Part shown: one piece after another, positions 7,185 through 29,760 of the stretch
Layout of the letters: every line of letters starts with the position of its first letter
Numbering within the stretch: position 1 is the first letter of the stretch
UHGV virus genome: UHGV-0115803
DNA length: 53,738 nt
Direction: 5' to 3' (one strand)
Source: a virus
Notes under the pieces: model-generated
Told to the model about the DNA's origin: nothing
The model's database searches: none
The model's input: the letters and a program-made list of their open reading frames with translations, nothing else
Translations under genes and position numbers: made by a program

Positions 7185-8195
7185 TTACGCTACATATTTT
7201 TCGTGTTCTAGTTTCAAGTCTGATCCCGACGTGTCGATGTATTGAAGCGTTGTGTCCACATCTGTGTGTCCGAGAAATCGCCGCACATCGTTCAGGCTCA
7301 TTCCTCTTTTCAGTGCTAAGGTTGCGGCAGTTCTCCGAAACTTATGTGGATGAACATGCGTCACGCCAGCACGTTTTCCAATTTCTTTGACCATCTTCTG
7401 AATACCGTTGCTAGTCATAGCTGTTCCCACTCCGTGTAATCCACACAGGATAGGTCCTTCTGAATGCGGCTTTATCACAAGATAATTATCAATAGCCACT
7501 TTGGCACGCGCATTGACGAAAACAACCCGTTCCTTGTTGCCTTTTCCGATCACAGTGATGGTTCCCCGTTGCTGATCATAGTTTTCCATCGTCAACATAG
7601 TCAGCTCTGTAACTCGGCAGCCTGTCGATAACAAGAGTTCGAATGTTGCTTTCTCTTTCGGCTTCCGACAAGCATTTCGCATCAGTTCTACTTCGACTGG
7701 CGTAAAGGCTTTTTTTAGTCGTTTTTCGACTTTGATCTTCTCAACCCTTCGTCCGGGATCCCTGCTAATGTATTCTTCTTCAAAGAGCCATTTAAAGAAT
7801 CGACAGATTGCACCGCGTTCTCTATCTAAAGTTGCTGATGATAGATGATCATTCATTTCTCTATTCGCAATGTAAAGACGTATATCATTCGTGGTCACAT
7901 CGTTAAATGATACTCGTACCCATCGATTAAATTTATCTATCGTTCGCATCGCCAGATTGATCGTTCCAGGCGAAAGACCGCGGAGTTTCATACTCACAAA
8001 ATATTGCTTGTATGCGGCAATGTCAGAAGTTTCATCGTAGATGATCACATCTCGACATTCTTCTTCGAGTCGTAATTTTTCTAGGTTGATTGTTAAAACA
8101 ATTTTCAGTTTTCTAAGTTGCTTTGCTTCAAGTTCGGGCTCCATATTCCTGACAACAGCATTAATAAATTGCTCTTTCAATTCCATGATTACCAC
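7185..8195 (-). CDS. XerC/XerD-like tyrosine recombinase (second recombinase of the element)
   Basis: 336 aa. C-terminal HPHKFRRTAATLALKRGMSLNDVRRFLGHTDVDTTLQYI (R..H..R..Y catalytic region). Sits among the early genes. Confidence 0.8.
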   Translation of the reverse strand: MVIMELKEQFINAVVRNMEPELEAKQLRKLKIVLTINLEKLRLEEECRDVIIYDETSDIAAYKQYFVSMKLRGLSPGTINLAMRTIDKFNRWVRVSFNDVTTNDIRLYIANREMNDHLSSATLDRERGAICRFFKWLFEEEYISRDPGRRVEKIKVEKRLKKAFTPVEVELMRNACRKPKEKATFELLLSTGCRVTELTMLTMENYDQQRGTITVIGKGNKERVVFVNARAKVAIDNYLVIKPHSEGPILCGLHGVGTAMTSNGIQKMVKEIGKRAGVTHVHPHKFRRTAATLALKRGMSLNDVRRFLGHTDVDTTLQYIDTSGSDLKLEHEKYVA

Positions 8196-8703: not shown

Positions 8704-8950
8704 GTAATCTCAACTCCCTTACACGGTCCACGCCGCTCTCAGTCATTCGAATGGTTCTCACTGCTCCCGGTTCGATATTTAACAAGTTCATGGCTTTCAA
8801 TTGCCATAAATATGAACTGACTGATGATGTTGAGGGGATGCCTGTATTTTTTGATATCTGACGAATCGTTGGTGGATATCCCTTTTTCGTAATAAAGTCA
8901 TCAATGAATAGCAACACTATTTCTAACCGCTGCCGCTTTATCTGTCTCAT
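8690..8950 (-). CDS. LexA N-terminal DNA-binding-domain-only protein (no S24 peptidase domain)
   Basis: KKGYPPTIRQISKNTGIPSTSSVSSYLWQLKAMNLL resembles the LexA winged helix (compare B. subtilis LexA [36 protein letters not shown]). Only 86 aa. Confidence 0.5.
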   Translation of the reverse strand: MRQIKRQRLEIVLLFIDDFITKKGYPPTIRQISKNTGIPSTSSVSSYLWQLKAMNLLNIEPGAVRTIRMTESGVDRVRELRLRDND

Positions 8951-9357
8951 TCTCGAACCTCTTTTCTTTTGGATATAGGCATATTAAAGGGATAGTGAAC
9001 GAATCTGCCGCTTTGTTTTTTTGCCAGTTCAATTACAATTCCCAGTTCGCTGGCGACAATCTTCGCTTTCAGCCGAAAATCTTTCGTTTCCATGCCTTTG
9101 ACATCAACAAGTCGAACAAGCTTTCCTTGATCGTAGAACGCATAATCGGCCACATACTGTGTTTTTTTGATTGTCCATGGATTGATTTTCAGCGTTGGAA
9201 GAATATCCAATCGTTCCTGAAGTTTTAGTTCATATTCATGTTTTCTTGCATACGCGACGGCGATTGGATAATAATCCGCCTCAGCAATCGAATCAAACCA
9301 ACGATCATAGCGATATACTTTTTTGTTACCGTATTTCGATCTTGATTGATACCTCAT
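8947..9357 (-). CDS. DUF1064-family phage protein
   Basis: YGNKKVYRYDRWFDSIAEADYY N-terminal motif. Confidence 0.45.
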   Translation of the reverse strand: MRYQSRSKYGNKKVYRYDRWFDSIAEADYYPIAVAYARKHEYELKLQERLDILPTLKINPWTIKKTQYVADYAFYDQGKLVRLVDVKGMETKDFRLKAKIVASELGIVIELAKKQSGRFVHYPFNMPISKRKEVRE

Positions 9358-18590: not shown

Positions 18591-18625
18591 ACCTGGCGCC
18601 GCCGGTTCGATTCCGGCTTGGGGAA
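18585..18625 (+). other. tRNA-3'-half-like fragment / minihelix (TCCCCA..GCCGG-TTCGATT-CCGGC-TTGGGGA-A)
   Basis: Perfect T-arm (GCCGG/CCGGC with GTTCGATT loop) plus a 7-nt acceptor-like strand that pairs with an upstream TCCCCA. No D arm or anticodon arm. Confidence 0.4.
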
Positions 18626-18653
18626 TAAAAAACAAATTTTTTGGGAGGTAAAT

Positions 18654-19514
18654 ATGTCGAACGCATCTGAAGATCCAAAAATAATATCTTTCATTAATAT
18701 GAAAGGCGGTGTTGGTAAAACAACTCTTTGTAAGGAAGTTGGATATCACTTAGCAAAAATCAGAAAGAAAAGAGTTTTATTGATTGATACCGATCCACAA
18801 GCTAATTTAACTCAATCATTTTTTAAAAAGTTTCATTTAAAACAACCTGGTTCAATGTTAGAAGGTGAAGACTCTTTTGAAGAATCTTCAGCAAGTATCA
18901 ATAATCTCTTCAAGAGTGATGGTATAGACCCTTCAAAAAAACTAGTAATAAGAAATCTAGATGAACAATTATCAATTATCCCTGGTGATCTAAATACTGT
19001 TTTTATGTCTAGAAATACTGATTCCTCAACTATGAATCAGTCTATTTACAATTTTCTTTTTATGAATTCTAGTTTTGAAAAATCTGAATACGATTATATT
19101 TTGCTGGATTGTCCACCGACATACTCTGAATACACAATCTCTGCCATCTTAGCTAGTACACATTACATCATTCCAGTTAAACCTGACAATTATTCAGTTC
19201 TTGGAATACAGATGCTAGAAAAAGTGATTCAGGATATAAAGAAGAAAAATCCTATTTACTTTAAAGAAAAACCAATAAAGAATATTGGTATAATTTTTAC
19301 GGATTTGCCCCTAAGGGTTGCAACTGGACAGGCAGAAACGATAAAATTGATCAAAGAAACTAAAAAACTGGAACCTTTTTACTTTTTCCAATCACATTTT
19401 TTAAAAAATAATGGCTTTTTCAAAAAGCTTGATTACTTTGTTGACGCCAGAAACAGTGAAAAGTCAAAGGAAAATCTTTATGCATTAGTTTCTGAATTAA
19501 TAGGGAGGTTATAA
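18654..19514 (+). CDS. ParA/MinD-family deviant Walker-A ATPase
   Basis: NMKGGVGKTT, DTDPQANLT and ILLDCPP motifs. Start at the ATG after GGGAGG (the listed ORF begins at an upstream TTG). Confidence 0.7.
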   Translation: MSNASEDPKIISFINMKGGVGKTTLCKEVGYHLAKIRKKRVLLIDTDPQANLTQSFFKKFHLKQPGSMLEGEDSFEESSASINNLFKSDGIDPSKKLVIRNLDEQLSIIPGDLNTVFMSRNTDSSTMNQSIYNFLFMNSSFEKSEYDYILLDCPPTYSEYTISAILASTHYIIPVKPDNYSVLGIQMLEKVIQDIKKKNPIYFKEKPIKNIGIIFTDLPLRVATGQAETIKLIKETKKLEPFYFFQSHFLKNNGFFKKLDYFVDARNSEKSKENLYALVSELIGRL

Positions 19515-20721: not shown

Positions 20722-21000
20722 ATGTCACCATATGAATTGAGAGAAAGACTAAAAAAAGAGGTACCAGAAGTAAAGATATACCCTATCCTTACAAAGTTTA
20801 GTTACAGTGAGGAAGAATATCAAGAAGAATTGAAAAATCAACTAGATTTAAAAAAAGATATTGAAGCTGGAAATGTGATTTCACGCCCTGTTTATACCTG
20901 GCAAGAGAAAGAACTAAAAATGGATAAGTTTTATGAAAAAGGATGGTATAAACCAAAGTTCTATACGCTTCCAAAATCTATGTTCAGGAGTGAAGACTGA
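20722..21000 (+). CDS. small protein overlapping the integrase start (Xis/accessory candidate)
   Basis: ATG after AAAGGAAA; stop overlaps the int ATG (TGATGG). Confidence 0.4.
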   Translation: MSPYELRERLKKEVPEVKIYPILTKFSYSEEEYQEELKNQLDLKKDIEAGNVISRPVYTWQEKELKMDKFYEKGWYKPKFYTLPKSMFRSED

Positions 21001-22217
21001 TGGCTTCAATAAAACCGTATAATTTAAAAAATGGTGAGCTGCGCTACGAAGTATTTATTTCTAACGGAGTGGACCCTGGTACCAAACGTCAAAATAAAAT
21101 TCATAAGAAAGGCTTCAGATCTTGGGATGAAGCAGATACTTTCGCAAAGATTACCGAAGGAGAAATCGCTAAAGGAAACTATAAAAAAGATGATGTAAAG
21201 CATTTGACAATTGAGCACTTTCTAAAGACGTGGATCACTGATTACAAATTAAGTGTTAAGGAAGGTACTAGAATTGTTCATCGGGACAATATTCGGATGT
21301 ATATAAACCCTTATATTGGAAAACATCGTTTAACTACCTACTCTCGTGCGGATCATCAGAAGTTCATTAATATGCTATTCACACTTAATGGAAAAGGCAG
21401 AAGTAAGAAAGGCTTATCTTTTAATACTGTTAAATTAGTAAACGCCACTCTTTCGAATGCTTATAAAAAAGCGATACAGCTTGGATATGTAAGTGAAAAC
21501 CCAACAGACTTTGTGGAATTTCCCTTACCGCCGAAAAAAGAGAAGATTCCTCCCCACTATACCGCAAGCGAAGTGGATTTATTTTACGAAGCAGCTAAGA
21601 AAGAAAAAGAACCATTTTGGTATCCGTTCTTCTTGTTAATCTTTGATTGTGGATTAAGAAAAGCAGAAGTGATGGCATTAAGATGGTCAGATTTTAATTT
21701 CGAAAAGAATTTTGTTGATGTGCAGCGAGAAAGACTCTATCGTGCTGAAGTTAAAGAAAACAAAGATGCGATCATAATTGATGACACAAAGACTCCAGCT
21801 GGCGAACGTGATCAACCAATCACACAAAGAACAAAATTTGCTCTACTCGAATTCTATAAATATTTTTATGATCTTATAGGAGTTACACCCTTACAGAAAA
21901 ATAATTCTGATTATGTGTTTATCTATACCTCAAGCAGCTCAAAGGGCAAAATAGTTCGAAATCGTTCAGTGAACGGCGCTTCTGTACGAATAGCGCGTAA
22001 AGCGGGCTTATCTCCCATCAAGGTACATGATGGCCGACACACCTATGCCATCCGCATGAGACAGGCTGGCGTTGATTTGGACGATATAAAAGACCTCCTT
22101 GGGCATAAAGATATATCTACAACTCAAATTTATGCTTCTGTGACTCCTGAAGTGAAGGAACGATCGGTGAAAAAATTCGAGGAATATTTAGAAGCGCAAA
22201 AGAAAAAGCACTCGTAA
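21000..22217 (+). CDS. int: phage tyrosine integrase
   Basis: 405 aa; C-terminal HDGRHTYAIRMRQAGVDLDDIKDLLGHKDISTTQIYASV. Confidence 0.85.
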   Translation: MASIKPYNLKNGELRYEVFISNGVDPGTKRQNKIHKKGFRSWDEADTFAKITEGEIAKGNYKKDDVKHLTIEHFLKTWITDYKLSVKEGTRIVHRDNIRMYINPYIGKHRLTTYSRADHQKFINMLFTLNGKGRSKKGLSFNTVKLVNATLSNAYKKAIQLGYVSENPTDFVEFPLPPKKEKIPPHYTASEVDLFYEAAKKEKEPFWYPFFLLIFDCGLRKAEVMALRWSDFNFEKNFVDVQRERLYRAEVKENKDAIIIDDTKTPAGERDQPITQRTKFALLEFYKYFYDLIGVTPLQKNNSDYVFIYTSSSSKGKIVRNRSVNGASVRIARKAGLSPIKVHDGRHTYAIRMRQAGVDLDDIKDLLGHKDISTTQIYASVTPEVKERSVKKFEEYLEAQKKKHS

Positions 22218-26430: not shown

Positions 26431-26656
26431 CATCAAAATACTGAAATTTTCTGAGCGTCCCCTTGTCTATTTCAAATTAGATGATCAATCATGTCTTATT
26501 GCCTCACACTCACTATCATTTTTGGCAGATGTTGAGAACGGAATGCGAATCGTAGTGGCTGGCGAGTACAATAGTAGAAAACAGTTCGTGGTGAAGAAAT
26601 ATGCGGTGATTGGCAAGACGAAGATTATGATGGAGTTTGAAATGATGAAAATATAA
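26402..26656 (+). CDS. hypothetical protein (84 aa)
   Basis: ORF. Confidence 0.35.
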   Translation: MMSMSGSVSSIKILKFSERPLVYFKLDDQSCLIASHSLSFLADVENGMRIVVAGEYNSRKQFVVKKYAVIGKTKIMMEFEMMKI

Positions 26657-26804
26657 AAATAAAACCTCCACAACCAACTAAGGCTGTAGAGGGTGTTTGC
26701 TGCATACGAAAACCCACTCTTTAGCAAGGGTAAAGAGTGGGCAAAAGAAAATGTGAGAGCGGATTACTCTCTACTTAGCAGTTTATCACTTTTAGGTTTC
26801 AGTG

Positions 26805-26876
26805 CAATAAAAAACAGGCACCTTTCGCCAGGGTGCCTGCCCCTCCTGTTTAGTTGAGGTATGAGGATACTTAGTA
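26805..26876 (-). ncRNA. array unit IV short RNA (terminator hairpin ~26815-26839)
   Basis: Promoter (plus coordinates) -10 at ~26882-26887, -35 at ~26905-26910; hairpin CAGGCACC..GGTGCCTG + T6. Confidence 0.35.
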
Positions 26877-26924
26877 AATTCATCATAATATAAAACGGTT
26901 ACAATGGCAAACAAAATGATCTCT

Positions 26925-26990
26925 AAAATAAAAAGGAGCACCCGATTATTCGAGTGCACGCAGATAAAATGAAAGAAAAGTTTCTAGGAT
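26925..26990 (-). ncRNA. array unit III short RNA (terminator ~26936-26960)
   Basis: Promoter -10 at ~26997-27002, -35 at ~27020-27025. Confidence 0.35.
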
Positions 26991-27039
26991 ACTTGTATTG
27001 TAAGCTAAAGCGCTTACATTAGCAAGGGGTAAGTAAAGC

Positions 27040-27102
27040 TAATAAAAAGAAGCACCCGATCACTCAGGTGCTCCCACAGAAATAAAAGATTCTCTAGAAT
27101 AA
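27040..27102 (-). ncRNA. array unit II short RNA (terminator ~27049-27074)
   Basis: Promoter -10 at ~27108-27113, -35 at ~27130-27135. Confidence 0.35.
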
Positions 27103-27154
27103 ATTCAGTATACAATGTAACGGTTACATTGACAAGCAATATGATGATATCGCA

Positions 27155-27212
27155 CCAAAAAGGGACGCTCAATAATTGAGCGTCCCTAGAGAAAATAAAA
27201 GATTCACTTGGA
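27155..27212 (-). ncRNA. array unit I short RNA (terminator ~27162-27186)
   Basis: Promoter -10 at ~27218-27223, -35 at ~27241-27246. Perfect 11-bp stem GGGACGCTCAA. Confidence 0.35.
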
Positions 27213-27330
27213 TCTTTAGTATATAATGTTAAGGTTACATATGCAATAGAAAAAACAGCTTAGTTTAGAGGTCTTTACTATAACTATTTAACTTAAAATC
27301 AGTTTTCTAGATTACATTTAGTTTTTTTAT

Positions 27331-27401
27331 GTACCCCGCAGGCCTCGAACCCGCATCTTCCGATATGAACCGGAGTATTCTACCAATTGAACTAAGGGTA
27401 C
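27331..27401 (-). tRNA. tRNA-like gene (CAT anticodon candidate) with a non-canonical anticodon arm
   Basis: Acceptor GTACCCT/GGGGTAC, D-arm GTTC-AATTGGTA-GAAT, T-arm GCGGG-TTCGAGG-CCTGC. The anticodon arm folds only as a 5-bp stem with a 6-nt loop, or a 4-bp stem with an 8-nt loop. Confidence 0.55.
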
Positions 27402-27756
27402 TTTAAATGAGTATTATTATTTTTTAAACGTGTTACAATAAAGAAATAGAACGTCAGATCTTCCCCACAGTCCACTTCCCCAAGTAACTGTATCTGACGT
27501 TCCCTTTTTTTATGGGCGAGTGACTTCCCAATAGAGTAGATGTTACCTAGAAACCGATTTCTTTGCAAATGATACACTCATGACAAAGTGATACACTACA
27601 CAAAGAAACAACCAGCCCGCACACGACTGGTTGCCGATCAAGATGAAACTTAGTTATGAAAAAGAAGTAAGTTCTGGCAAAACTTACACATTCATAATAG
27701 CTCTTTTGTTAATATCTTGCAAGCGCATTCTCGTCTAAACTCTTTTTTAATGTCAC

Positions 27757-27850: not shown

Positions 27851-28378
27851 ATGGAATCATTTCAGGATAACCACTATATTTTATACTGGCTGTTTCAAAT
27901 TTTAACTTTCGTCGGAGCATTCACCATTCTTCAGGGTCTTGTATACTTTATTAAACCCTATGAGTATGAAAGTATCACTGTAAAAAATGTTGATAAAATT
28001 GATAAAACAGCGGTCTATAATGATTATGATATTATTGAGGAAATTGATTTTGACAAGAAAAACGAATTCCCAAACCATAAGACTATTATTATAAGTCCGC
28101 AGGATTCATTAATGAGTAGTATTGAGTTTTCAGAGTTAAGTAATGATTTGACCCATTTTAAAAAATCAAGTATCCAGTTTAGAACGAGTGAACTAGAACC
28201 ACAACAATACTTACTTTTAAGAGTTCCTACTACGGATATGACTGGTATAATTCAAATTAACTTCAAAATAAATTATAAAAAAGGATCATATGAGTTTTCT
28301 CCAAATATGAGAAATGGTCATGAAGATAAAGTCGTTCTTAAAGTTAAAAAAACTTTAACAAGCTTTATTAATAAATGA
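27851..28378 (+). CDS. membrane protein (175 aa), flanked by the direct repeats
   Basis: N-terminal TM helix YILYWLFQILTFVGAFTILQGLVYFI; very AT-rich. Confidence 0.4.
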   Translation: MESFQDNHYILYWLFQILTFVGAFTILQGLVYFIKPYEYESITVKNVDKIDKTAVYNDYDIIEEIDFDKKNEFPNHKTIIISPQDSLMSSIEFSELSNDLTHFKKSSIQFRTSELEPQQYLLLRVPTTDMTGIIQINFKINYKKGSYEFSPNMRNGHEDKVVLKVKKTLTSFINK

Positions 28379-28506: not shown

Positions 28507-28550
28507 TAACTCCCTTTGTTATTTTGCAAAGGGAGTTCTTTCTTTTATTT
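28507..28550 (+). terminator. intrinsic terminator AACTCCCTTTG-ttattttg-CAAAGGGAGTT + T-rich tail
   Basis: 11-bp stem read directly from the sequence. Confidence 0.5.
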
Positions 28551-29552
28551 AATATCGTGATACCAACGTGTTTCGTAGAAGTCTTGATGACCTCCACTTA
28601 CATCACCTTTAGCGTCATTTGTAGCACGTGTCATCACAATGACTGACTTACCACTAAAATGCTTAGCATTGAAATTCACATCATAACCGACATTCCCAGT
28701 CGTCCGATAAGCAGCATTCACATCTGGTCTTGCTACTCCAGGTGCTTTCTGGCGTGCCAATTCTTTGCCAGTTGTCCGATCAATAATAAATACATATTGA
28801 TACTTGTAATTAGCGATATGCCACCCACGCGCCTTCAAGGTGTTCCCGATTCTCCCCCATTGATCAACATGAGCATGGTTTCCTTTGCCATCGTTCATTA
28901 CAGAATATCCTGATCCTGCGGTAGTTGGATCTACAGGTTTGCTTGGAGTCGGTGCAGGTTTGTTCTCGTTTGATTCAAACCCATACTTCACATCATGCGC
29001 AAATTGCGCTTGAGACACACCCTGACTTGCTAAATAGCCATACGGGTCCGTATGATCGCCCCACCAATTCGTAGAAATGTATTGGTGACTGATGACCCCT
29101 TTGCCGCCTACTGGACTGTCTACAGTAAGAGGAATATTAAACCGTTTCGCACTGTCACGAATTAATTCAATGTAAACTTTATAGTTCTGTTTAAAGAGCG
29201 CTGGATTTGGCGTTGCCTGCAGTTCAATTTGAACAGGTGAATTTGCATTCGCAAAAGCTCCGGCTCCATATTGTACATATCCTGGTTCACCAACTTGGTA
29301 GACAATACCGTCACCAACAATATAGCTAGTGTAGGCATTCATCCAATTGCGCTTCATAAAGGTAGCTTCGTTACGTCCTGTTGCGCTAGGATTTGCAGTA
29401 TCGTGAGCAATAATGTAATTATGATTCGCTCTAATTGGACTGCCTTCATTCGCCCCTAAATTGAACTCGTTATTGATCGTGTAAGCAAACCCATTAATAG
29501 GCAATAAAAAAAGAGCCAGTAAAAGGCTCAGTAACGTAATTTTCTTTTTCAT
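28545..29552 (-). CDS. endolysin: N-acetylmuramoyl-L-alanine amidase with Sec-type signal peptide and C-terminal wall-binding domain
   Basis: Start at MKKKITLLSLLLALFLLPINGFA, preceded by AGGAGGA. IIAHDTANP...GDHTDP are amidase_2-like motifs. The listed ORF start at 29591 overlaps the holin. Confidence 0.7.
   Translation of the reverse strand: MKKKITLLSLLLALFLLPINGFAYTINNEFNLGANEGSPIRANHNYIIAHDTANPSATGRNEATFMKRNWMNAYTSYIVGDGIVYQVGEPGYVQYGAGAFANANSPVQIELQATPNPALFKQNYKVYIELIRDSAKRFNIPLTVDSPVGGKGVISHQYISTNWWGDHTDPYGYLASQGVSQAQFAHDVKYGFESNENKPAPTPSKPVDPTTAGSGYSVMNDGKGNHAHVDQWGRIGNTLKARGWHIANYKYQYVFIIDRTTGKELARQKAPGVARPDVNAAYRTTGNVGYDVNFNAKHFSGKSVIVMTRATNDAKGDVSGGHQDFYETRWYHDIK
28548..28573. repeat. 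26-bp direct repeat, copy 2 (inside the endolysin 3' end)
   Basis: See 27757-27782. Confidence 0.6.
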
Positions 29553-29562
29553 GTGATTCCTC

Positions 29563-29760
29563 CTATTTTTTCGAATTGTATGCTGAGACACCTGTAACTA
29601 CTCCTAAAAAAGTAGCTACAGCATTAATTGTTAGCACAGTCATATCCGCGCCACCCCAACCGTATGCTTTTCCAAGCGTGCCAACTAAAACAGATGCAGC
29701 TGGCAACACTGTGAGAACCGCCCATTTAATAATTTGGTAATACTTGTCCGGTAAAATCAT
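29563..29760 (-). CDS. holin (65 aa, two TM)
   Basis: Start MILPDKYYQ after a G-rich RBS; two hydrophobic helices. Confidence 0.5.
   Translation of the reverse strand: MILPDKYYQIIKWAVLTVLPAASVLVGTLGKAYGWGGADMTVLTINAVATFLGVVTGVSAYNSKK

Follow-up and report, generated by a model that had tools for sequence, protein, structure and literature searches.

What is encoded by the row of short promoter-and-terminator units that lies behind the endolysin gene of the phage genome UHGV-0115803? We analyzed the whole 53,738-nucleotide (nt) sequence of this virus, which we refer to as the window. It is the genome, circularly permuted, of a temperate siphophage of the Enterococcus avium group, and the host group is Enterococcus. 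The late genes are on the minus strand and end at the endolysin gene (28545-29591). A plus-strand operon, encoding UmuC, DUF5960, SRAP, and an 84-amino-acid (aa) open reading frame (ORF), converges on the array. A preliminary description, made from the sequence letters, had reported four or five self-contained promoter/RNA/terminator minigenes at this site, just after a tRNA. Our analysis of the sequence indicates that the array is a previously undescribed family of predicted genes for sibling small RNAs (sRNAs) on an Enterococcus prophage and that it lies inside a larger noncoding module.

The array consists of five complete units

Five promoter/short-RNA/intrinsic-terminator units, named U1 to U5, follow a tRNA-like gene on the minus strand between 27246 and 26709 (Table 1). 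Each unit is 103 to 115 bp long, and the -35 hexamers of successive units are 111, 110, 115, and 103 bp apart. Start sites were placed a variable 6 to 9 nt behind the -10 box. This predicts RNAs of 55 to 67 nt, each with an open 5' part of 25 to 37 nt followed by the terminator hairpin. By sequence, all five units have the anatomy of an independent sRNA gene, which is a short noncoding stretch between its own promoter and its own Rho-independent terminator, and the self-contained units of the preliminary description were borne out. We infer from this anatomy that each unit is transcribed.

A consensus scan listed the promoters of U2, U3, and U4, with 9 to 10 of 12 matches. The -35 hexamers of U1 and U5 are weaker and match only at TTG. 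The promoters had all been called near-consensus, which fits the first three and is somewhat generous for the other two. In a 3-kb region, a consensus scan for terminators found seven terminator-like sites, against 1.8 +/- 1.4 in shuffled sequences. Five of the seven are in or beside the array, on the array strand. Fold z-scores were -3.9 to -6.2 for U1 (-21.5 kcal/mol; z = -6.2), U2, U5, and the type A unit of relatives, and they were weaker for U3 and U4.

Small peptides were rejected as products of the region. It has no plausible or conserved ORF on either strand, and gene callers left this 1.1-kb stretch empty in nine independent assemblies. The statement that no peptide ORF is conserved between units was also correct.

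In related phages, the usual layout begins with a candidate structured RNA (RNA X) and the tRNA-like gene. Next is a variable protein-coding slot closed by a conserved terminator, and single units of types A, B, and C lie between this slot and where the convergent operon ends. In the window, U1 to U3 are three paralogues of type A, U4 is of type B, and U5 is of type C. U1 to U3 have 67 to 72% mutual identity over about 95 nt, and they are 71 to 75% identical to type A elsewhere. Judged by these identities, they are old, diverged paralogues and not recent duplicates, in agreement with the preliminary description. The GCACC(C)GAT core that had been seen in several units corresponds to AUCGGGUGC, which forms the 3' side of the terminator stem in U2 and U3. 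The U4 terminator, GGCAGGCACCCUGGCGAAAGGUGCCUG (26841-26815), is the same as that of type B in relatives or differs from it by one loop base. U5 had been taken for a partial unit pointing into the end of the translesion operon. Instead, it is complete, represents a distinct type, and is the best conserved of the five. Along its full length, it shares 86% identity with type C in relatives. Between its end and the stop codon of the convergent 84-aa ORF are 53 nt, which include a further terminator.

Table 1. Predicted elements of the array and of its immediate surroundings in the window
Feature	Position	Strand	Description
Candidate structured RNA X	27440..27572, ends approximate	-	Long hairpin GAACGUCAGAU...AUCUGACGUUC around ACUUGGGGAAGU motif; from folding
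tRNA-like gene	27330..27401	-	Rfam tRNA, 38.6 bits; ARAGORN 'tRNA-???', no anticodon assignable
Decayed terminator relic	27250..27275	-	AAGACCCUAGC..GCUAAGGUCUUUU in relatives; compared with L178, L184, L186, L190, L196, and L257
U1 promoter	27218..27246	-	TTGCAT-17-TATACT; ATGTAACC box right behind -35
U1 RNA, A-type paralogue, ~55 nt	27157..27211	-	U-rich unstructured 5' part; terminator 27187-27161, 12-13 bp; predicted start
U2 promoter	27107..27135	-	TTGTCA-17-TATACT; palindromic box TGTAACCGTTACA
U2 RNA, A-type paralogue, ~57 nt	27044..27100	-	Terminator GGGAGCACCUGA-GUGA-UCGGGUGCUUCU, 27075-27048; fold z = -3.9
U3 promoter	26997..27025	-	TTGCTA-17-TACAAT; box TGTAAGCGCTTT
U3 RNA, A-type paralogue, ~61 nt	26930..26990	-	Terminator GCACUCGA-AUAA-UCGGGUGC, 26957-26938; fold z = -2.0
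U4 promoter	26882..26910	-	TTGCCA-17-TATGAT; box TGTAACCGTTTT
U4 RNA, type B, ~67 nt	26809..26875	-	5' part with CCUC motifs and AGGAGGGG run; fold z = -1.5
U5 promoter	26780..26807	-	TTGCAC-16-TAAACT; box TGAAACC; -10 is TATACT in E. malodoratus
U5 RNA, type C, ~65 nt	26709..26773	-	Two hairpins, 26771-26755 and terminator 26742-26712; fold z = -5.1
Bidirectional terminator	26665..26692	.	From terminator scan and relatives; common to array side and convergent UmuC/SRAP/84-aa operon

Substitutions avoid the predicted RNAs

A prophage of Enterococcus malodoratus ATCC 43197 carries the same RNA module. Over 1.09 kb (window positions 26642-27731), it is 94.5% identical to the window. The alignable segments of the structural genes are only 74 to 86% identical, and the endolysin gene and the operon side do not align at all. 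In this prophage (L173, 1-2550), the module adjoins the endolysin gene, and its far side has only two predicted membrane proteins that are not phage-like and no UmuC/SRAP operon. Therefore, the module is not tied to that operon.

We compared the two modules column by column. Differences affect only 7 of 306 columns in the RNAs, versus 19 of 174 in the promoters and discriminators (Fisher p = 1e-4), and each RNA body differs by 0 to 2 positions. In the RNAs, three stem pairs have changed from A-U to G-U, one loop base is replaced, and there are three single-base length changes (a stem base, an A-run, and a U-tail). None of the four substitutions in the terminator hairpins breaks a pair. U1 has two differences (a stem A-U to G-U change and one loop base), and U3 has none. 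The unstructured 5' parts of U1 to U3 and U5 are invariant, and that of U4 has one deleted A. The promoter hexamers shift yet stay promoter-like (TACAAT to TAAAAT, TATGAT to TATCAT, and TAAACT to TATACT).

We also analyzed the terminator helix of type A in 14 distinct sequences. Paired bases occupied 93.9% of the cells, and 5 of the 12 pairs had changed on both sides. None of 500 shuffles reached the observed counts, and slid controls were 47 to 53% paired. This agrees with the earlier observation that pairing is kept by compensatory changes. Type A has a weak AU hairpin in its 5' part that the other A-like units do not preserve (75% paired). Therefore, this part is best treated as single stranded.

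The array is thus conserved beyond the neutral expectation, with changes that preserve structure, and it is present in related prophages, where substitutions avoid the transcribed parts. The preliminary description had proposed selection on RNA structure. The covarying stems support this, but the invariant unstructured 5' parts of U1 to U3 and U5 do not fit with structure alone. Together, these comparisons indicate that selection acts on the RNA sequence as a whole.

The array is variable cargo of related phages

We found relatives through an exact 31-mer of the tRNA-like gene, the 84-aa ORF, and, in metagenomes, the promoter pattern. The lysogenic type strain E. avium ATCC 14025 has a copy of the array that is 98.7% identical, and the module is therefore directly testable. 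The exact 84-aa protein is in 262 blocks of public assemblies, one of them a complete 4.79-Mb chromosome. All nine of the assembly places with this protein that were read hold a near-identical, almost invariant RNA module. Because these nine further places are so similar, they add no information from population variants.

Other loci (designated by L numbers) differ in the number and kind of units. Two divergent A-like units stand alone in L211, L270, and L274, and L257 has a single A-like unit. L204 and L259 have unit A, then an inserted gene, and then different small units. Among 58 phage loci that share the 84-aa ORF, only 8 have the array. We read 17 of the loci that lack it. Several consist of the endolysin gene, one bidirectional terminator, and the ORF, and others have different cargo. 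In relatives without the array, the bidirectional terminator is the sole element that separates the endolysin gene from the UmuC/SRAP/84-aa operon. Therefore, the array is accessory cargo. Its site is an accessory region, with the endolysin gene on one side and the convergent UmuC/SRAP operon and the integrase side on the other. Self-contained units, a position in the lysis-to-integrase region, and variable presence among related phages are also the features by which phage morons are recognized.

Searches for known or more distant relatives were negative. The array and 15 kb around it had no match in 50,697 phage records (blastn and megablast) or in PLSDB plasmids, and patterns for the sRNA bodies and the two promoter boxes returned mostly chance matches from IMG/VR. 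A search of 66 loci and the rest of the window with a covariance model of the A-type RNA (R1) yielded no additional members. Against Rfam 15 families, including LhrC, csRNA, RsaOG, and the Fst antitoxin, only the tRNA passed the threshold, and all others were far below it. Literature searches by words and by sequence strings found no description of the array.

Proposed function of the sibling RNAs

The reading that we favor, at about an even chance, is that the array encodes trans-acting sibling sRNAs with an unstructured U/C-rich 5' end and that these are accessory genes of the prophage. The five genes, of three types (A three times, B, and C), would be moron-like cargo behind the endolysin gene of temperate phages of the E. 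avium group. Host RNA polymerase with sigma-A would read each gene from its own promoter and would be stopped by the intrinsic terminator of that gene. The product would be an RNA of about 55 to 67 nt, made of an unstructured U/C-rich 5' part of 25 to 37 nt and a 3' hairpin. Its most likely action would be antisense pairing in trans, with G.U pairs tolerated. Probable partners would be one or more mRNAs of the host or of phages, paired at their purine-rich ribosome-binding and start-codon regions. The three diverged A copies might provide dosage or a broader target range.

Some properties of the 5' parts are in line with such pairing. They pair about 1 standard deviation better with the ribosome-binding regions of the phage itself than with random windows, with no outlier. 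Also, UUU(C/U)AU is present in every A-like 5' part and could, with G.U pairs allowed, base pair with AUGAAA. Target pattern searches within the phage found nothing, and a genome-wide duplex scan of the phage returned only self-antisense matches and sites with z of about -4.5 to -5.5. Pairing among the RNAs of the module itself was not significant (the best was U4 with the tRNA-like RNA; z = -2.6).

Several points weigh against trans-acting sRNAs. The phage genome has no convincing target, and the best sites are marginal. These are U4 at the ribosome-binding region of a Holliday-junction-resolvase-like ORF (8947-9357; -23.6 kcal/mol) and U3 at the Cro-like ORF (-18.3 kcal/mol). Enterococci are not known to have Hfq, and very AU-rich pairing would therefore be weak. 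In type B, it is the terminator hairpin, with its 9-nt loop, that is near-invariant, whereas the 5' part differs strongly between the window and relatives. A classical seed-driven sRNA would show the reverse. Finally, the comparison set is narrow, consisting of one phage clade with many near-identical copies.

The array has counterparts among known sRNAs. Sibling sRNAs include LhrC1-4 of Listeria, PrrF1/PrrF2 of Pseudomonas, and OmrA/OmrB of Escherichia coli, all of which are multicopy. As in those systems, the array has diverged paralogous genes arranged head to tail, each with a sigma-70/sigma-A promoter and an intrinsic terminator. The promoters have a motif in common, and the predicted RNAs are short, with pyrimidine-rich single strands that could cover ribosome-binding sites. 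However, the array has no sequence or structure match to LhrC or another Rfam family, and it is borne by a prophage rather than by the core genome. It also has three RNA types, and its RNAs are 55 to 67 nt, compared with about 110 nt for LhrC. Prophages are a known source of sRNAs, such as DicF and the AgvB/AsxR RNAs of enterohemorrhagic E. coli prophages. Those, too, are small noncoding RNA genes that are temperate-phage cargo of variable presence, and the array would presumably resemble them in being expressed by the prophage and acting on host transcripts. However, they are single genes, from Gram-negative bacteria, and Hfq dependent. The array has five genes, is in an Enterococcus phage, is tied to a tRNA(-like) gene and a structured RNA, and flanks a slot for defense genes. 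Like phage morons in general, its units are self-contained, lie between the lysis genes and the attachment site, and are absent from most related phages. Unlike in usual morons, the "gene" would be a noncoding RNA of about 60 nt, and there are five cassettes in series.

The small regulatory RNAs of enterococci and of Gram-positive prophages are poorly charted, and this one mobile module would add five, possibly seven, noncoding RNA genes. It is missing from annotation and from Rfam despite the 262 assembly blocks with the 84-aa protein. By regulating host mRNAs, if they do so, the RNAs would give a prophage a means to rewire its host. A connection to the defense gene slot, if there is one, would make them an RNA layer in the conflict between phage and host. 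The upside would come if a link to this slot and to the odd tRNA-like RNA proves functional.

The units have a promoter box in common

A box, TG(T/A)AA(C/G)C, lies directly behind every -35 hexamer. This suggests that the units are under common transcriptional control, which we regard as a lead only. The 9-mer WTGWAASCG occurs three times in the 53.7 kb, always at the same position in array promoters. This 9-mer equals the left half of the CcpA cre consensus. U3 and U4 match the 14-nt cre operator consensus, TGWAANCGNTNWCA, with two mismatches, and the right half of cre is one base too close in U2 and type A. The full consensus was not enriched genome-wide (63 matches with <=2 mismatches versus 70 expected).

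Two other kinds of promoter element were considered and rejected. The TGTAAC/TGAAAC box resembles the -35 element of extracytoplasmic function (ECF) sigma factors, but there is no CGT-type -10 at the proper distance. An operator of the phage repressor was also rejected, as the palindrome is not present in the CI/Cro switch region.

In two metagenome contigs (L262 and L263), ATGTAAGCGTTTCAGTGTATAAT, which combines the type-A promoter box and -10, occurs between genes for a HAD-phosphatase-like and a ROK sugar-kinase-like protein. A second TTGTAAC is 25 nt upstream. This site could be the native operator of the regulator, or it could be a chance match, as the search pattern selected for the combination of box and -10.

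Neighboring RNAs and a slot for defense genes

The gene upstream of the array had been described as a tRNA, and Rfam scores it as one. However, a canonical 7-nt anticodon loop is missing. CAU lies in a loop of 6 nt, or of 8 nt if the stem is drawn with 4 bp, the variable region is short, and ARAGORN reports 'tRNA-??? (ca)' for the window and six relatives. The gene has its own promoter, with the TTGTAAC box as its -35, and an exact 31-mer of it recurs in 22 IMG/VR contigs. A more distant relative (L268, 9380-9456) has a canonical 77-nt tRNA-Met(CAU) in this place, which shares its acceptor and T arms with the gene in the window. Because of this, the gene in the window looks like a conserved, non-decoding derivative of a phage tRNA-Met(CAU).

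RNA X lies upstream of the tRNA-like gene, within the conserved noncoding module, and is kept in relatives. Its conserved core is GAUACAG...ACUUGGGGAAGU...CUGUGGGGAAG. In L268, the outer stem is rebuilt from different but complementary arms (GGAUUCCUGAU/UUCAGGAAUCC). X-like hairpins are also found in phages without the tRNA (L221, L226, and L254, with two copies in the last). RNA X had no match in Rfam. Between a terminator and the start of RNA X, there are 2.3 copies of a 19-nt direct repeat (GTGTATCAYTTTG..., 27566-27605), which may be the binding site of a regulator of RNA X.

The slot between the tRNA-like gene and unit A has variable protein cargo in relatives (L178, L184, L186, L190, L192, L195, and L196). 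Its contents include Abi_2, which is of the HEPN type of abortive infection; a GNAT acetyltransferase preceded by a small ORF; a PIN-domain protein; DUF3800; and a SocA/Panacea antitoxin-domain protein. Therefore, the slot is a hotspot for defense and toxin-antitoxin genes. A conserved terminator closes it upstream of unit A in relatives. In the window, the slot is empty, and the terminator has decayed.

Alternative explanations

The RNAs might instead be protein-binding decoys or antidotes. Acting with the tRNA-like RNA and RNA X, the sibling RNAs would bind or absorb RNA-targeting effectors, possibly the HEPN, PIN, or GNAT toxins of the slot or host defense nucleases, and would serve in self-immunity or counterdefense. 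We consider this unlikely, but it has points in its favor. The array is downstream of RNA X and the tRNA(-like) gene wherever upstream sequence is available, relatives have the Abi_2, GNAT, PIN, DUF3800, and SocA/Panacea genes in the slot, and the anticodon loop of the tRNA-like RNA should not decode. The type B hairpin and loop are near-invariant and its 5' part is variable, and we therefore keep a protein-binding or decoy role in consideration. The expansion of unit A also recalls pseudo-ToxI, which expands in escape phages. However, the array is unchanged beside very different cargos, and in the window it has no cargo beside it. Therefore, it is no dedicated antidote to one toxin. Also, a ligand consisting of the hairpin only would not need the full conservation of the 5' parts of U1 to U3 and U5 between the E. 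avium-type window and E. malodoratus. It is rather improbable that the whole 1.1-kb module, with RNA X, the non-decoding tRNA-Met-derived RNA, and the sibling sRNAs, is an RNA-only device for counterdefense or self-immunity. If it is, then the RNAs would be decoys or antidotes for effectors that target RNA and tRNA, such as HEPN Abi_2, PIN, and GNAT toxins or host anticodon nucleases. Such a device would explain why the module frames the defense gene slot, and three A copies would raise the decoy dosage.

Another explanation dispenses with RNA function. The units might be relics, that is, promoter-terminator cassettes left empty by cargo loss, or at most a stack of terminators that insulates the UmuC operon from late read-through. 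Cargo is often gained and lost in this region, which is a hotspot, a decayed cargo terminator lies just upstream of U1, and a series of six terminators on the late-gene strand would stop read-through. However, relics should decay evenly, and the transcribed parts are about five times more conserved than the promoters. Every old paralogue has been retained, and the stems have compensatory changes. The insulator role, which the preliminary description had listed as a candidate, is not needed. About 50 of the 58 related phages manage with one bidirectional terminator at the same junction, and in E. malodoratus a convergent operon that would need protection is absent. We doubt that the units are relics or insulators. 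A role at the DNA level, in which the TG(T/A)AA(C/G)C boxes about 110 bp apart would be a centromere, iterons, or a device to titrate a regulator and the transcripts would be incidental, is very unlikely. The restriction of WTGWAASCG to array promoters, a spacing near a whole number of helical turns, the ParA-like protein of the phage, and the likeness of the box to the left half of a CcpA cre site would suit it. The preliminary description had also raised an iteron or centromere array, which is a poor fit. Among close relatives, drift is seen in the right half of the box and not in the RNA bodies, the parA-like gene is at a distance of 8 kb, and the promoters of types B and C and of the tRNA have different versions of the box. 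Also, unit number ranges from 1 to 5, the module is present in an integrated prophage at the end adjoining non-phage-like genes, and the full cre consensus is no more frequent than expected. Finally, it is extremely improbable that the array belongs to a known repeat-RNA system, an idea that the anatomy largely refutes. Such a system would be a type I antitoxin with a small toxin, a type III ToxI-like array, or a mini-array resembling clustered regularly interspaced short palindromic repeats (CRISPR), including an RNA anti-CRISPR. Tandem short RNAs in a phage, beside defense genes in relatives, would be in keeping with this, and the hairpin GCACC..GGUGC is similar to the final one of Cas9 tracrRNAs. 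However, there is no conserved small ORF on either strand for a type I toxin. A 22-aa ORF opposite U3 has no counterpart in types A, B, and C, and its ATG is ATA in type A. ToxI, antiQ, and pseudo-ToxI are likewise tandem short RNAs in or near abortive infection genes, with copy numbers that can expand in phages. ToxI-type repeats are near-identical units of about 35 nt that are cut from one precursor, with the toxin gene behind them. In contrast, no tandem repeat was detected in the array. Its units of about 110 bp are 55 to 75% identical (55 to 72% in the type III comparison), each has its own promoter and terminator, and a convergent operon rather than a ToxN/AbiQ-like gene follows. Tandem- and direct-repeat searches found no identical repeats of the CRISPR type and no direct repeats of 28 to 37 nt, and no Rfam family matched.

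Other features of the genome

Other predicted products of the phage include RecE/RecT, a replication initiator, Cro-like and CI-like regulators, a ParA-like protein, and an integrase. The ParA-like gene is in the lysogeny arm (18618-19514, plus strand). A second tyrosine-recombinase gene is in the early region (7185-8195, minus strand), separate from the integrase gene (21000-22217). The 84-aa protein had only a subthreshold OB-fold match (tRNA_anti_2) in Pfam and nothing in PHROGs or NCBIfam.

On the opposite strand, between the endolysin gene and RNA X, is a 175-aa ORF (27851-28378, plus strand) with no match in Pfam, PHROGs, or NCBIfam. It is absent from some E. avium prophages (L276-L278, L280, and L282) and present in others that are otherwise near-identical (L279, L281, L283, and L284). 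One IMG/VR contig (L215) has a Nextera/Illumina adapter-like sequence (...CTGTCTCTTATACACATCT..., other strand) at its end (1-60), which is an assembly artifact in the public record.

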